DNA from: an uncultured Gammaproteobacteria bacterium
GTDB lineage: Bacteria; Patescibacteriota; Patescibacteriia; UBA2591; UBA6264
Assembly (NCBI GenBank): GCA_964596735.1
Contig: CAZQVF010000005.1
Span: 13,328 to 77,327 of the forward strand
Reading direction: 5' to 3'
Length of the DNA stretch: 64,000 nucleotides
A model generated the notes under the pieces. The model had not been told where the DNA came from, searched no databases, and was given only the letters and a program-made list of their open reading frames with translations. Position numbers and translations under genes: made by a program. Of the stretch, positions 16,998 through 20,982 are shown piece after piece (the first letter of the stretch is position 1; each line of letters starts with the position of its first letter).

Positions 16998-17231
16998 TTA
17001 TTTAATATTTAATTTTTCCTTAAACTTTGGGACATCAAATCCCATAATCATTTCCCCGTCGATTTCTGTTACGGGTACGGCCATCTGCCCTGTTTTTTTA
17101 ATAAAATCATCAACCAGATCCTGATGTTGACTAAGATCAACCTCTTCAAACTCGATTTTATTCTCATTTAAAAAATCTTTGACATGGTGGCAATAAAGAC
17201 ATGATGGTGATGTATAAACAATTATTTTCAT
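16998..17231 (-). CDS. Glutaredoxin/NrdH-like thiol-disulfide oxidoreductase
   Basis: 77 aa, CLYC active site in a thioredoxin-fold context (KIIVYTSPSCLYC...VPVTEIDG). Confidence 0.6.
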   Translation of the reverse strand: MKIIVYTSPSCLYCHHVKDFLNENKIEFEEVDLSQHQDLVDDFIKKTGQMAVPVTEIDGEMIMGFDVPKFKEKLNIK

Positions 17232-17266
17232 ATATTCTTAGTTAATTGGTTATTTACTGTTAGTAT

Positions 17267-17422
17267 AAGAACCTGCTTCGCAGAACCTTGAAATTAAATT
17301 CTATTATATATAAATTAAGGTAATTTAATTATAAGAACCTGCTTCGCAGAACCTACCTGCCGGCAGGCAGGCCTTGAAATTAAATTCTATTGTATAAATA
17401 ATAATGTATTTTAATTATAAAG
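17267..17422 (+). repeat. Two tandem orphan copies of the promoter cassette (17267-17332 and 17333-17422); the second carries a 12-bp GC palindrome insertion CCTGCCGGCAGG
   Basis: Copy 1 reproduces the aspS upstream region through ...TAAGGTAATTTAATTATAAG, including the equivalent of aspS codons 1-4. Copy 2 carries the GC-rich palindrome at 17356-17367. No + strand ORF follows; both point into the 3' end of the minus-strand RT gene. Confidence 0.55.
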
Positions 17423-17464
17423 ATTAGAAAAAGCTCGTCAAGTTATCTTATTTTGTAATAATAT

Positions 17465-18511
17465 TTATTCTACTAAACCTACTTTCTTTCTAAATTTATA
17501 CGTATTTCCGTGAATCAATAGTCCTTGATAAGAAATAACTGTCTGTCGTTTTGGATAATTCTTTAATCTTCTAATTATCTTTCGCTTTGTGGTTGTTCGA
17601 ATCTGTCGATAGCATGGAAAATGTATCCAGCCCAAAAAATCTAAACCCGAAGCATAAGTTCTAATACAAACCTTGTGTTGATGAAGTGTCAATTTAAGTT
17701 CTTTTTGTAAAAATTCAGTGATTCTTAACAATAAACCATTGAGATACTCTTTATTGTCCGATAAAATAACGAAATCGTCGCCATATCTAATATAATATTT
17801 CACTCGCAATTCCTGTTTTATATACATATCAAATTCGTGCATATAAACATTAACGAAAAGTTGGGAAGTGAGGTTGCCAAGGGGCAGACCTATCCCCAAA
17901 CGGCTGGAATAAAAACTAAAAACTACCCTTTCAATCAACCGAATAATTTGAGAATCGTTAATGTGTCTCTTTAATATTTTAATAAGGATTTGCTGATCAA
18001 TGTTAGCAAAAAATTTCTGAATATCGCATTTTAGAATATAACAAGTTTGAGAATTATTTTTTGATACCTTCTGGGCAAAATATCTGAATCTGTTCAAAGC
18101 GCGATGCACTCCCTTGTTTTCTCTACACGAATATACATCATAAATAAACTTTCTATCAAAATAAGGACACAGCTCCTTATAAATGAGATGATGTAATAAC
18201 CGATCACGCACCGTAGCTTTGTGAATATTTCTCGGCTTGGGGTCAGAAATATTAAAAGCCGAATATGGTCCGTGAATATAAGTAAAATTAACCAGAGACT
18301 TATAAAGATCTATTAAATTATCGGCCAGCTTTATTTGAAAAATCATCACATCTTTTTTATGTCTTTTACCACACAAAAAACGCTCCCAAGTCGCTAAGAG
18401 ATTTTCTATCTTAATAATATCAATATATTTAACTTTAAACATATGACTACAATATCTGCGCGAGTACCATTGGTGCTTGTTAGAACAAAAAGGGCTTATC
18501 AAATTTGGCAC
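17465..18511 (-). CDS. Diversity-generating retroelement (DGR) reverse transcriptase
   Basis: RT motifs including LPLGNLTSQLFVNVYM ([ILV]GxxxSQ, DGR-specific) and YIRYGDDFVIL (YxDD). N-terminal ENLL...GKR.K...PY.AF.I.DPKPR.I..A...DRLLHHLI pattern typical of DGR RTs. The real start may be Met24 (18442). TR lies ~330 bp upstream. Confidence 0.85.
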   Translation of the reverse strand: MPNLISPFCSNKHQWYSRRYCSHMFKVKYIDIIKIENLLATWERFLCGKRHKKDVMIFQIKLADNLIDLYKSLVNFTYIHGPYSAFNISDPKPRNIHKATVRDRLLHHLIYKELCPYFDRKFIYDVYSCRENKGVHRALNRFRYFAQKVSKNNSQTCYILKCDIQKFFANIDQQILIKILKRHINDSQIIRLIERVVFSFYSSRLGIGLPLGNLTSQLFVNVYMHEFDMYIKQELRVKYYIRYGDDFVILSDNKEYLNGLLLRITEFLQKELKLTLHQHKVCIRTYASGLDFLGWIHFPCYRQIRTTTKRKIIRRLKNYPKRQTVISYQGLLIHGNTYKFRKKVGLVE

Positions 18512-18820
18512 AAAAATTTAGTCAATCTTAATCGACTTGATCGCTATACTATTGGTGCTAAAATCGATGAATATTTTCTATCTTTATTGGAATTAATTTT
18601 TAAGGCCTGTTTTGCTTACGATAAATTTGAAAAACTCTCAATGGTATCACAAGCGATTGGTAAAAACGATTTATTAAAATTCTTTTTACAGATTGGTTGG
18701 GAACAAAAAACCATTAACCATAAAAATTATGGTCTTCTAATACTTTTACTTGATGAAGTTGGTCGAATGCTGGGTGGCTGGAAAAAAAATATACAAGAAA
18801 AAACTCCCGCTAGTAAGTAG
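18443..18820 (+). CDS. Avd-like accessory variability determinant (four-helix-bundle, 23S rRNA IVS protein family), on the opposite strand
   Basis: 125 aa, predicted all-helical. C-terminal LDEVGRMLGGW resembles the conserved Avd/four-helix-bundle motif, and AYQIWHK resembles the N-terminal helix. It sits between TR and RT, on the opposite strand. Confidence 0.5.
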   Translation: MTTISARVPLVLVRTKRAYQIWHKNLVNLNRLDRYTIGAKIDEYFLSLLELIFKACFAYDKFEKLSMVSQAIGKNDLLKFFLQIGWEQKTINHKNYGLLILLLDEVGRMLGGWKKNIQEKTPASK

Positions 18821-18840
18821 CAGGAGAAAAAATTAAATAA

Positions 18841-18960
18841 GTCACAGAAGCAGAGCAGGCAGTCGTTATCATCCCAAGCGTTCTCAAAGTTGCCGAGGTT
18901 GAAATTAAAGTCATCATCCGAGTTGCGGTTGACATTCGGCACGCGGTAGTTGCCGTCAGA
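18841..18960 (-). repeat. DGR template repeat (TR), 120 bp, Asn(AAY)-codon rich
   Basis: 120-nt alignment to 19299-19418 with 16 mismatches. All 15 internal mismatches are A in the TR coding (minus) strand; one T/C mismatch lies at the extreme 3' (IMH-like GC-rich) end. Read in the VR frame it gives SDGNYRVPNVNRNSDDDFNFNLGNFENAWDDNDCLLCFCD. Confidence 0.85.
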
Positions 18961-19189
18961 CAATGTACAGCCCGCCACCTTTTTCACTAAGGGTAACGCC
19001 AGTCGCCCTCTGTATTTTATTCTGAGCCAAAATGCTCAATAGCACGCTGCACCGACTGATTTAATTTTTTCATAAAAGGTTGCACTCATTTACTAAGCAT
19101 GCCCAGTAAATTCCTGGCAAACTCCCTTTACGAGAATTCGATGATATAAAGCCATGGCCACATATCCAATCTATTATCCAAAAATATTA

Positions 19190-19238
19190 TACAGAAAAAA
19201 TACATAAAAGAAAAGGGTCCTTACATTGGTAAGAACCC
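19190..19238 (-). terminator. Rho-independent terminator downstream of the DGR target gene
   Basis: Minus strand: GGGTTCTTACC-AATG-TAAGGACCC hairpin (one mismatch) followed by TTTTCTTTTATGTATTTTTT. Confidence 0.5.
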
Positions 19239-19289
19239 AAAGGGTCAAAAAATCCAAAGAACAGGACTAAGAAACCAAGTGCCTAAGCA

Positions 19290-19997
19290 CTAATCGCAGT
19301 CGCAGAAGCAGAGCAGGCAGTCGCTATCATCCCAAGCGTCCTCAAAGGGGCCGAGGAAGAAAATAAAGTCACCAACCGAGTAGCGGTCGACAGACGGCAC
19401 GCGGTAGCTGCCGTCAGAATCGATCCAGAGAGCCTCTTTCTCATCAAACGAGACAGACCAACGGCTCTTTGGCAACTTGTTTTTGGCAAGTTCATAGACC
19501 AGTGAAGCGCCTTGAGCGCCGGCTAAAACAGCTTTCTGAGAATACAGGAAATTTAAACAGTCTTCCGAAGTCACAGTTTCTGTGATATTAAAAACCTTTA
19601 CCTTGAACTTTCTGCCAGGCACGAGCTTTGTTGTCGCTTTGTTAAAGTGCTTATCAGTGATGTCGGAATTGTAGTAATTAAATTCCGAGCCATGCGCTGC
19701 TGCAAAGTCAGTCAAGCGCGTAGCATGGTCGTAACCCTTAGGCACAACAATGTTAAACGCATTGGCCAATTTGAAGCGCGGGTCAGGCATAAACGGTGAA
19801 AGAGCTTGCTGACGTTGTTTCTGTGTCAGATTTAAAAAACATTCATATTCTGGCAAACTCATTTGCCCTTTCTTGATCTTCTGATTGCAATCCATATGCA
19901 GACCAGCCAATTTGGCCGCTTCTGCGCCGATAGATGTCTTATCCATCATTTTCTCCTTTGATACCAAGAGTTTAATAATTGACCCCATGCCAATCAT
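19290..19997 (-). CDS. DGR variable (target) protein, 235 aa, with the variable repeat encoding its last ~40 residues
   Basis: C-terminus ...SDGSYRVPSVDRYSVGDFIFFLGPFEDAWDDSDCLLCFCDCD is the diversified counterpart of the TR-encoded peptide. No signal peptide is evident. Confidence 0.75.
   Translation of the reverse strand: MIGMGSIIKLLVSKEKMMDKTSIGAEAAKLAGLHMDCNQKIKKGQMSLPEYECFLNLTQKQRQQALSPFMPDPRFKLANAFNIVVPKGYDHATRLTDFAAAHGSEFNYYNSDITDKHFNKATTKLVPGRKFKVKVFNITETVTSEDCLNFLYSQKAVLAGAQGASLVYELAKNKLPKSRWSVSFDEKEALWIDSDGSYRVPSVDRYSVGDFIFFLGPFEDAWDDSDCLLCFCDCD
19299..19418 (-). repeat. DGR variable repeat (VR) at the 3' end of the target gene
   Basis: See TR. A GC-rich invariant 3' segment (CGACTGCCTGCTCTGCTTCTG) forms an IMH-like end. 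A small hairpin GTGC-TTAG-GCAC abuts the stop codon. Confidence 0.85.
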
Positions 19998-20092
19998 TTT
20001 CTCAGTATTGATAATATTATGTCATATTTTAGCCTTTTTGTCAACACTCCTATTCCAAAAGACTTAAAATTTATATTAATCTAAAATAAAAA

Positions 20093-20200
20093 CACCGCCG
20101 AGGAGAATCGAACTCCTGAGACGGATTTGCCTTTAGCGGAAAACCTGGCGTCCTACAATGCTTAATAAATTAAAATGGCCCCGAGGAGAATTGAGTGAAA
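20093..20200 (-). other. Two tRNA 3'-end-like fragments (T-arm plus acceptor 3' strand), possible integration scars
   Basis: Minus strand: GGAGTTCGATTCTCCTCGGCGGTG (20093-20116) and CAATTCTCCTCGGGGCCA (~20177-20194). No complementary 5' acceptor strand or D/anticodon arms could be built. Confidence 0.3.
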
Positions 20201-20201
20201 A

Positions 20202-20891
20202 TTATTTTAATCCACTTTGTAATTTTAACGCGTCAATCCATCCTTTAATTCGAAAAGCTATCTTACGACCATGTACACGTAAATCAAGTGTGCCATATGG
20301 CAAAGAATTGATTGGACGTTTTCTGTTGCTCGCTTTGCTTATTTGTTTAAAAATGCGAAAACGACTTTTAGGAATATTAGTTACTCTAGCCCAAAAATTA
20401 ATGGCAGATTGCTCGCTAATATTAGCATGTATTCTAACACATACTTTTAATTTCTCTTCAGGGACTTTAATAATTTCTCGTAAAAAGCGAAGAAACAACG
20501 CAATCATATAAGGATCAGCATTAACAAAATCAACTACATACCCTTTGTTTTTTTGAGCCTCAATTTTATATCCCTCTGCCCAATAAAGAGCATTTGCAAC
20601 TAATAATAACTCATATTTTGACAACGAATGAATTTCATTAAAAGTCTCCTTCTTTATTCTCTGATTTTCAATCCAAATAGCACGTGTCCGTTGCCGATTG
20701 TTTTCAAATAACCCATGTTCTCGAGCAATTCTCGTTTTTTTTTCTAAAAGCTTTTTTGCTGACTTTGTTAGTTTTAAGTCTCTAAACCAAACGCTAAGCG
20801 AGCCCTTGGAAACACTTAAAGTACGAGCTATTTCATTGTAACTTTTACCCTTTAACCGCAACCTGAGCGCTTTTTGATATTGTGGATGCAT
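20202..20891 (-). CDS. HTH-domain protein of unknown function (transposase-type HTH; possible homing-endonuclease-like C-terminal region)
   Basis: KGKSYNEIARTLSVSKGSLSVWFRD is a transposase/sigma-region-4-like HTH; NALYWAEGYK is vaguely LAGLIDADG-like. The ORF track starts at 20954 inside tRNA-Glu; I prefer Met22 (20891). Confidence 0.35.
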   Translation of the reverse strand: MHPQYQKALRLRLKGKSYNEIARTLSVSKGSLSVWFRDLKLTKSAKKLLEKKTRIAREHGLFENNRQRTRAIWIENQRIKKETFNEIHSLSKYELLLVANALYWAEGYKIEAQKNKGYVVDFVNADPYMIALFLRFLREIIKVPEEKLKVCVRIHANISEQSAINFWARVTNIPKSRFRIFKQISKASNRKRPINSLPYGTLDLRVHGRKIAFRIKGWIDALKLQSGLK

Positions 20892-20909
20892 AATAATTAA
20901 ATATATAAG

Positions 20910-20982
20910 TAGCGCCAAGGGGAATCGAACCCCTGTTACATGGTTGAAAACCATGTGTCCTGACCACTAGACGATGGCGCCA
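20910..20982 (-). tRNA. tRNA-Glu (anticodon TTC)
   Basis: Minus strand GGCGCCATCGTCTAGTGGTCAGGACACATGGTTTTCAACCATGTAACAGGGGTTCGATTCCCCTTGGCGCTA. D-arm TCGTCTAG...GGAC as in bacterial tRNA-Glu, anticodon loop TTTTCAA, canonical TTCGATT T-loop, G1-U72 wobble. Confidence 0.8.

Follow-up and report, generated by a model that had tools for sequence, protein, structure and literature searches.

We found that the region studied here is, with a probability of roughly 0.85, an active chromosomal DGR of the CPR/Patescibacteria type B3, in which the template repeat (TR) would be transcribed from a separate RNA gene, the accessory gene avd and the reverse transcriptase (RT) gene diverge from each other, and the two proteins would act in trans. 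It lies in a window of 64,000 nucleotides, the whole stretch of DNA that we analysed. The identities of Avd, RT, TR and the variable repeat (VR) are established by the evidence below, as are the orientation of the genes and its conservation, the diversification of the VR in nature, and the conservation and covariation of the RNA elements around the TR. The divergent avd, flagged in a preliminary description as an unusual DGR layout, is the already known B3 architecture, which is typical of CPR and not new.

In the reading that we favour, the TR-RNA gene would consist of an extended -10 promoter, a structured leader of ~220 nt, the 121-nt TR, and a hairpin followed by a U tract. The promoters of avd and of the RT gene would each be embedded in, or lie just inside, the first codons of the other gene. 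Working in trans, Avd and RT would use the self-contained TR RNA as template and copy it with adenine-specific errors, and the resulting cDNA would replace the VR.

Genes and repeats of the element

The target gene, the TR and the RT gene all lie on the - strand, where the order is target gene with VR, terminator-like hairpin, TR-RNA unit, inverted avd (on the + strand) and RT gene (Table 1).

Table 1 Coordinates of the features of the element in the 64-kb window.
Feature	Position	Strand	Remarks
Target gene	19290..19997	-	235 aa, also called with 235 aa on public contigs; VR in the last ~40 codons
Variable repeat (VR)	19298..19418	-	3' end of the target gene
Short GC hairpin AGTGCTTAGGCACT	19278..19291	-	Directly past VR and stop codon; terminator/hairpin scan
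Terminator-like hairpin and T run	19215..19238	-	Predicted to close the target-gene transcript; terminator scan
Extended -10 TGTATAAT, putative TR-RNA promoter	19186..19193	-	Directly past the target-gene terminator-like hairpin; sequence reading
Structured RNA domain 5' of TR	18946..19082	-	Long helix, inner hairpin, 9-bp hairpin with tetraloop-like loop
5' arm of long-range helix GAAAAAATTAAATCAGTC	19054..19071	-	Inverted repeat I3: 18 nt, 94% complementary
Template repeat (TR)	18840..18960	-	121-nt repeat of VR
3' arm of long-range helix GACTTATTTAATTTTTTC	18826..18843	-	Last TR bases and TR-avd spacer
Post-TR hairpin CTCCTGCT-ACTTACT-AGCGGGAG, then TTTTTTCTTG	18794..18826	-	Terminator scan
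avd	18443..18820	+	ATG ORF, 125 aa; basic four-helix-bundle accessory protein of the DGR
DGR RT	17465..18442	-	325 aa from ATG 18442; RVT_1 (Pfam) E 2.3e-21

Judged by its RVT_1 domain and by the motifs [ILV]GxxxSQ and YxDD, read from the sequence as LGNLTSQ at residue 188 and YGDD at residue 220, the RT belongs to the DGR type. The mechanically longest RT ORF has 348 aa (18511..17465) and, with a GTG start at 18511, would overlap avd by 69 nt. Alignments of the RT, on the other hand, mostly extend to residue 1 at ATG 18442 (MFKVKY..., query start 1-9; 76 genome loci with an RT match), and the gene calls on identical public contigs give the 325-aa RT, ending exactly at the avd start. With the RT starting at ATG 18442 and not at GTG 18511, the start codons of avd and RT therefore abut (CAT directly followed by ATG, 18440-18445), head to head, with neither intergenic DNA nor overlap, and from starts placed back to back the two genes are transcribed divergently. 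The preliminary description had avd divergent from, or overlapping, the 5' end of the RT gene; its orientation opposite to VR, TR and RT stands, while the overlap at 18443-18511 exists only with the GTG start.

Proteins of the Avd family form a homopentameric barrel that binds RT and DGR RNA. The ORF list places DEVGRMLGGWKK at residues 104-115 of the 125-aa avd product, and an AlphaFold model built from 31 homologues (mean pLDDT 89.6) predicts four helices at residues 10-28, 31-57, 61-87 and 93-119, which confirms the helical 125-aa + strand ORF with this motif that had been described between TR and RT. In a Pfam profile search, the product matched PF22296 (bAvd) with 47.5 bits, above the curated cut-off of 40, over profile positions 8-106 of 107. 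NCBIfam NF033474 (DivGenRetAVD) matched as well (E 4.5e-14), its 52.6 bits lying under the 80-bit equivalog cut-off. The proposed Avd-like four-helix-bundle identity is thus carried by these two profiles and not by PF05635 and TIGR02436, which gave no match at E<=1 in the Pfam and NCBIfam searches.

We further compared the predicted model with the PDB by Foldseek. The top fold match was 4DWL_D, the Avd of a Bordetella phage (TM 0.78/0.90, rmsd 1.6 Å), and the Avd chains of the DGR ribonucleoprotein 8UB7 were further matches, so that the four-helix bundle, predicted here, is common to this element and the Bordetella phage BPP-1 DGR (mtd-avd-TR-brt, Architecture B1). A PDB sequence search with the Avd profile returned nothing at E<=0.01, and the Bordetella Avd was reached by the fold search only. 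Since the NCBIfam score lies under the equivalog cut-off and the PDB sequence search was empty, we base membership in Avd on Pfam, the modelled fold and the surroundings of the gene: the TR starts 20 nt past the avd stop codon, and avd abuts the RT gene. The product has a pI of 9.78, compared with a mean of 9.5 +/- 0.7 for the Avd set of Wu et al. 2018 (PMC5758913). From these profile matches and the modelled fold, we regard the + strand ORF as a genuine Avd. In addition, some of its database relatives carry the NCBI name 'four helix bundle protein'.

The preliminary description had also left room for a better-supported, co-oriented small ORF elsewhere. The ORF list holds no such accessory ORF of at least 40 aa on the - strand between TR and RT. 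Two - strand ORFs, 18727..18987 and 18810..18935, were considered as accessory genes and rejected, being merely readings of the TR.

TR and VR differ by 15 mismatches, 14 of which are at TR adenines, the remaining one being a T to C change at 18844; the two repeats are therefore the TR/VR pair of a DGR. Both the RT motifs [ILV]GxxxSQ and YxDD and this adenine-specific transfer from TR to VR are shared with BPP-1. The TR/VR homology terminates in CTGCTTCTG(C/T)GACT, and a 5-bp GC hairpin then follows the VR. By analogy with the IMH-proximal hairpin of Bordetella, this AGTGCTTAGGCACT hairpin is a candidate target-recognition hairpin. Further downstream, the alignment of intergenic regions shows partial conservation of the terminator-like block. 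The target-gene product itself matched no family in Pfam and NCBIfam searches.

The DGR is active, and its VR is diversifying in nature. An identical Avd protein is encoded on at least 21 public contigs, independently assembled. Three of them (L081, L085 and L086) carry 16, 15 and 2 differences from the window inside the VR, and only one position differs outside it over the ~1.8-2.6 kb compared per contig; other public contigs with the exact Avd are identical to the window throughout. Adenine accounts for only 23% of the TR, but 32 of the 33 between-sample differences in the VR face a TR adenine, next to more than 2.5 kb of identical flanks. With a VR that differs at TR adenines between otherwise identical contigs, the divergent avd is therefore compatible with ongoing mutagenic retrohoming.

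Conservation of the divergent layout

In the survey of Wu et al. [quoted passage not shown] The window element has this core, namely TR-(avd)-RT with avd reversed and no other accessory gene. Compared with the CPR-type B3 DGRs of that study, the order and orientation are the same, a single target gene lies upstream and Avd is basic; the layout is identical. BPP-1, by comparison, has all its genes co-directional, whereas avd is inverted here.

To place the element among its relatives, we collected 366 database proteins matching the avd product at E<=1e-3, mostly at 70-87% identity, and scanned 185,579 species-representative genomes, 377 of which encode a relative of the avd product; 80 of these loci were fetched. 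The RT gene was on the opposite strand and directly head to head with avd in every genome locus with enough upstream DNA (76/76). We also examined 80 metagenome loci, in which Avd identity falls as low as 39%; the RT gene was divergent and adjacent in 69 of the 70 that could be scored, which brings the TR-(avd)-RT layout to 145/146 scorable related loci. In about 70 genome loci, the distance from the avd stop codon to the TR on the opposite strand was mostly 12-25 nt (mode 17-21), the VR follows ~460 nt beyond the TR, and the TR/VR differences show the adenine bias. By their labels, the hosts of the related loci belong overwhelmingly to Paceibacterota, Patescibacteria and other CPR groups. The MAGs that hold the nearest loci go by names such as Paceibacterota, Patescibacteria, Nomurabacteria and Minisyncoccia, a few of them probably wrong, and the GC content of the window is 33%.

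Given the published B3 definition and its recurrence in 145/146 related loci, the flagged feature was described correctly, but as an architecture it is known and typical of its lineage. A synteny comparison with other CPR DGRs had been suggested as the test of how odd the arrangement is, and its outcome, a divergent RT in 76/76 genome and 69/70 metagenome loci, together with the B3 share of the published CPR set, removes the claim that the layout is unusual.

Two other accounts of the inverted gene have to be set against this. One ascribes the inversion to a local rearrangement or to misassembly of this contig. We found nothing in its support, and the arrangement is identical on at least 21 contigs of this element, each assembled independently, as well as in the 145 of 146 diverged relatives, so we give this account practically no weight. 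The other, also contemplated in the preliminary description, holds that the ORF at 18443-18820 is not Avd but spurious or decaying, and that the element works without the protein. Lineages of Avd-less DGRs do exist (Wu et al. 2018, PMC5758913), and the NCBIfam score below the equivalog cut-off would fit this view. It is opposed by the PF22296 match above its cut-off, by the predicted fold resembling Bordetella Avd and by the position of avd, invariant in 145 loci. Moreover, across 77 avd genes the synonymous sites are saturated throughout except at codons 118-122, and this saturation, together with 70-87% protein identity, indicates that the Avd protein is under purifying selection. We therefore reject a spurious or decaying ORF as very improbable and take the protein to be the Avd of the B3 element.

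The TR RNA and the expression of avd and RT

According to Wu et al. 2018 (PMC5758913), a cassette with components on both strands needs two transcription units or more. In the element studied here, the sequence suggests that the TR RNA is probably a self-contained unit, with transcript ends that are predicted. Upstream, the perfect extended -10 TGTATAAT has a TATA(A/T)T core that reaches 90% conservation or more among 61 aligned intergenic regions, and we predict that the TR RNA starts near 19179. A consensus promoter scan missed this site because it has no -35. Between this putative promoter and the TR lies a conserved and structured leader of about 140-220 nt.

The structure of the leader is supported by covariation. 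RNAalifold predicted 35 pairs on one alignment (A2), 27 of them with compensatory changes. In a leader alignment (A3), 96% of cells were paired, compared with 76% after shuffling and 33-55% when the partners were slid, and both sides change in 22 of the 26 pairs. A covariance model of the leader (R1) gave one match in the 64-kb window, at the position of the structured domain on the - strand. Among metagenome loci it gave 57 matches in 56 independent loci, one each except two in L138. These matches lie next to the TR on the strand opposite avd, also in loci with an Avd of only 40-50% identity. An Rfam scan of 17200-20200 found no family; only a sub-threshold chance match to anti-hemB appeared (18.4 vs 49.5 bits).

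A long-range helix is predicted to join this leader to the 3' end of the TR. It comprises 17/18 pairs, and its 5' segment lies ~95 nt upstream of the TR. An invariant GUCGGUG at 19057..19051 (- strand) is a candidate region for the priming nucleotide. An ungapped search for this helix among relatives gave mixed registers, and a comparison of cognate and non-cognate duplex energies was used instead. Over 55 distinct loci, the cognate mean was -6.6 kcal/mol against -4.8 kcal/mol for non-cognate pairs, and 0 of 5000 permutations reached the observed cognate mean.

Directly after the TR stands a hairpin that extends over the last five codons of avd and its stop codon. Codons 118-122 form the 3' half of its stem and the U tract, and among the 77 avd genes they are the only ones with frozen synonymous sites (CAA 30/30, AAA 76/77, ACT 71/73, CCC 60/63). 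The stem is conserved and covarying, for instance with AU<->GC exchanges in 25 sequences. Together with its U tract, the hairpin may terminate the TR RNA or serve as its 3' element. Only four U of the tract are invariant across the family, and for this reason read-through from the TR into the RT gene is possible. Both the leader and the hairpin may take part in priming and bind the proteins.

In BPP-1, 20 nt of avd sense RNA lie 5' of the TR, and an essential Sp RNA of ~140 nt with the priming site A56 lies 3' of it (PMC6182149). In the window element, by contrast, only ~18 nt and one hairpin follow the TR, and a structured RNA of ~140-220 nt sits 5' of it. The long-range helix resembles the duplex of upstream avd and downstream Sp described as the 'cPRT stop' (bioRxiv 10.1101/2023.10.23.563531). 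A second likeness, by analogy only, is to the msr-msd RNA of retrons, with its structured non-coding domain 5' of the template and complementary arms joining that domain to the template 3' end; there is no sequence or Rfam relationship between the two. As a side observation, an RNA accessory domain upstream of the TR looks unreported in the literature that we searched, a search with the dedicated CPR-DGR paper of Paul et al. 2017 (PMC5436926) outside its range. In a term check, the text of Wu et al. 2018 (PMC5758913) was likewise without a structured TR leader, a hairpin at the avd stop or a homopolymer at the avd/RT junction.

For avd and RT themselves, neither a consensus scan nor reading of the sequence revealed a convincing sigma-70-type promoter in the window, and the sites found by the promoter scan were not above those in shuffled sequence (15 vs 11.2 +/- 2.4). 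Many relatives carry on the RT strand the arrangement TTGTGC-G(8-11)-~5 nt-TATAGT/TATAAT-~6 nt-ATG, which is promoter-like and would give a near-leaderless RT mRNA. As the window has no convincing RT promoter, read-through of the post-TR hairpin is a possible source of RT mRNA.

These observations bear on a further rival, raised in the preliminary description, in which a single - strand transcript covers TR and RT and crosses avd in antisense. The antisense avd RNA would then be the counterpart of Bordetella Sp, and its synthesis would interfere with avd expression. TR and RT are indeed co-oriented with avd alone between them, the window shows no clear RT promoter, read-through of the terminator is possible, and Bordetella cDNA synthesis needs 140 nt downstream of the TR (PMC6182149). 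Against this, the conserved, covarying hairpin and U tract stand directly after the TR, the structured domain that is conserved is the one upstream of the TR, and many relatives have the -35/-10-like pair right upstream of the RT ATG. Since the synonymous sites of avd are saturated outside the last five codons, the antisense of avd holds no conserved RNA element; we rejected it as an Sp-like RNA cofactor, nucleotide-level constraint being limited to codons 118-122. We consider the single antisense transcript unlikely. With a conserved extended -10 before the TR leader and a hairpin and U tract after the TR, such a TR-RT transcript is probably needless for expression. The other option offered at the outset, that avd is expressed from its own promoter, gains support, the promoter itself being putative. 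A separate TR-RNA gene with divergent avd and RT is thus the reading that we retain.

The avd/RT junction in relatives and the meaning of the inversion

Poly-G/C contingency tracts that mediate phase variation are found in genes and promoters of Neisseria, Campylobacter and Bordetella. At the avd/RT junction of the relatives, we observed a simple-sequence repeat that looks like such a phase-variable locus in sequence. The start codons of avd and RT overlap by 12 nt (ATGAnTnAACAT) in 61/76 relatives' loci, and past this overlap come 15-30 A/T-rich nt, a homopolymeric C tract and then the Avd core. The tract sits within the first codons of avd and, on the RT strand, falls between the -35-like and -10-like hexamers. 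Tracts of at least seven C are present in 65/76 genome loci and 47/69 metagenome loci (mode 9-10, range 7-15), and a (CA)n repeat replaces the C tract in two loci. In ~980 kb of fetched DNA, 117 runs of at least eight C fall at the junction, compared with four C or G runs of at least eight elsewhere.

The length of the tract varies in otherwise identical DNA. Two loci (L010 and L098) have C11 and C15, respectively, with 500 nt of identical flanks, and in one strain C10 and C9 occur with 1.9 kb of identical flanks, a conserved ATG being in frame with C9 only. Three proteins of this strain (P0104, P0037 and P0034) were considered as three tract alleles and rejected as such: P0104 is another start call on the C10 allele, which leaves C10 and C9. 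An ATG that is open and in frame precedes the tract in only 22 of the 113 distinct loci that carry one. The window element and its closest relative (L091) have no tract and a fixed in-frame ATG. The likeness to phase-variable loci accordingly concerns the relatives only, with their length-variable C8-15 or (CA)n tract, while switching itself is an analogy and the window is without a tract. Alternatively, the length differences could be homopolymer sequencing or assembly errors, the tract could be handled by transcriptional or ribosomal slippage, or the avd start codon could lie downstream of the tract in the relatives. We found no mention of a simple-sequence repeat tied to a DGR accessory gene in the DGR literature searched, a search whose scope again left aside Paul et al. 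2017 (PMC5436926).

These side observations allow a bolder, tentative reading, to which we would give somewhat poorer than even odds, in which the inverted avd is functional design in two ways, a phase-variable switch at the junction and a permuted, retron-like DGR RNA. At the junction, the inversion may set the first codons of avd and the RT promoter region around a hypermutable C8-15 or (CA)n tract, whose length changes may switch Avd translation, and perhaps RT transcription, stochastically on and off; the window element may be a locked-on derivative that has lost the tract and is visibly diversifying. On the RNA side, the 3' cofactor domain of Bordetella (Sp) may have been relocated 5' of the TR, with the long-range helix bringing the domain to the TR 3' end. 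If this reading is true, the tract would act as a master switch, itself phase-variable, that controls targeted hypermutation.

On the reading that we prefer, an active B3 element with a separate TR-RNA gene, the flagged layout alters nothing: the element is a textbook copy of a published cassette, and its sequence is already present in public assemblies. Its value is that of a clean, demonstrably active reference copy of a CPR-type DGR. Two by-products may deserve follow-up, namely the 5' structured TR leader with its putative, avd-overlapping terminator, and the junction repeat in relatives. The Bordetella model, with co-directional genes and an accessory RNA 3' of the TR, is not transferable unchanged to CPR, the largest natural reservoir of DGRs, and if the side observations hold, they would provide testable handles on how the RNA template is defined and how the cell restrains a hypermutator.

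RNA elements flanking the template repeat

Immediately 5' of the template repeat (TR) we identified a conserved and covarying structured RNA domain, preceded by a conserved extended -10. The domain matched no Rfam family, and its covariance model returned one match in nearly every related locus (57 matches in 56 metagenome loci). Based on this conservation and covariation directly upstream of TR, in DGRs of this type the accessory RNA appears to lie 5' of its template, unlike the Sp accessory RNA of the Bordetella phage BPP-1 DGR, which lies 3' of TR.

Features of the cassette, its flanks and the junction tract of a relative
Feature	Location	Strand	Context
Structured RNA domain, conserved and covarying	window 18946-19179	-	immediately 5' of TR
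Conserved extended -10 (TGTATAAT)	window 19193..19186	-	ahead of structured RNA domain
Hairpin and U tract	18794-18826	-	directly 3' of TR; overlaps avd codons 118-125 and stop codon
18-nt inverted repeat, 17/18 complementary	window, arms 19054-19071 and 18826-18843		around TR
Intact tRNA-Glu	20909..20981	-	overlaps mechanical start of HTH-domain ORF 20202..20954
GC palindrome CCTGCCGGCAGGCAGG	17357-17372		between RT stop codon and glutaredoxin gene
Junction tract, example	L171:1473-1560		related locus

On the other side of TR, a hairpin followed by a U tract overlaps the end of avd, the gene for the Avd accessory protein. Among 77 homologues, the only frozen synonymous sites in avd fall in codons 118-122, within this overlap, so constraint on the K-T-P conserved at the Avd C-terminus may come from an RNA or DNA element rather than from the protein.

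TR is also bracketed by an inverted repeat whose complementarity is cognate-specific among relatives. Its 3' arm takes in GACT, the final bases of TR and the end of TR/VR homology, and this GACT adjoins a near-invariant GTCGGTG on the 5' arm. The repeat is a candidate site for bringing a priming nucleotide to the template 3' end.

Variation in the variable repeat

Comparison of the variable repeat (VR) of the window (19298-19418) with its same-strain natural variants from different samples (L081, L085 and L086) showed that 32 of the 33 differences lie opposite TR adenines. The VRs were identical in all five contigs of a tract-bearing relative strain (L171-L175); this difference between a variable and a uniform VR is an anecdotal contrast only.

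The sole non-adenine mismatch between TR and VR in the window is at 18844, one base before the terminal GACT, with T in TR and C in VR. Since the family consensus TR has C here, the change sits in the window's TR and not in its VR, a hint that TR may not serve as the template at this position.

Genomic surroundings and host labels

The cassette neighbourhood differs among relatives (in L171, for example, GatC/amidase and DNA ligase), and the DGR may therefore sit on a small mobile island. Just upstream of the promoter of the DGR target gene, a sequence resembling a tRNA 3' half (CCGAGGAGAATCGAAC...) occurs twice in the window, at 20084-20194 and 20909-20981. The interval that separates the RT stop codon from the glutaredoxin gene contains tandem repeat units of ~66-86 nt (17255-17420), each with a small hairpin CCTGCTTCGCAGA and TTCTTATA, terminator-like on the - strand.

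Several MAGs with the CPR-type cassette, including L001, L008, L012, L047, L051, L060 and others, carry the record-title labels 'uncultured Gammaproteobacteria', 'Bdellovibrionales' or 'Thermodesulfovibrionales'. Such non-CPR labels probably stem from errors of binning or labelling and not from horizontal transfer.

A simple-sequence repeat at the avd/RT junction

In most relatives (genome loci L001-L080 and metagenome loci L091-L170), a homopolymeric C tract of C7-C15 (mode 9-10) separates the overlapping start codons of avd and RT (ATGAnTnAACAT) from the conserved Avd core, with a (CA)n repeat in its place in L020 and L050; the equivalent site of the window (18430-18470) carries neither. Runs of at least eight C are concentrated here, with 117 at the junction versus 4 elsewhere in 980 kb. 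The ATG upstream of the tract is in frame in only 22 of 113 loci, and tract length is unequal in otherwise identical DNA (C11/C15 and C10/C9). Among L171-L175, four contigs carry the out-of-frame C10 allele and one the in-frame C9. Read on the RT strand, the tract of relatives is often flanked by TTGTGC on one side and TATAGT/TATAAT on the other. The junction tract of relatives could be a phase-variable switch for Avd, RT or both.
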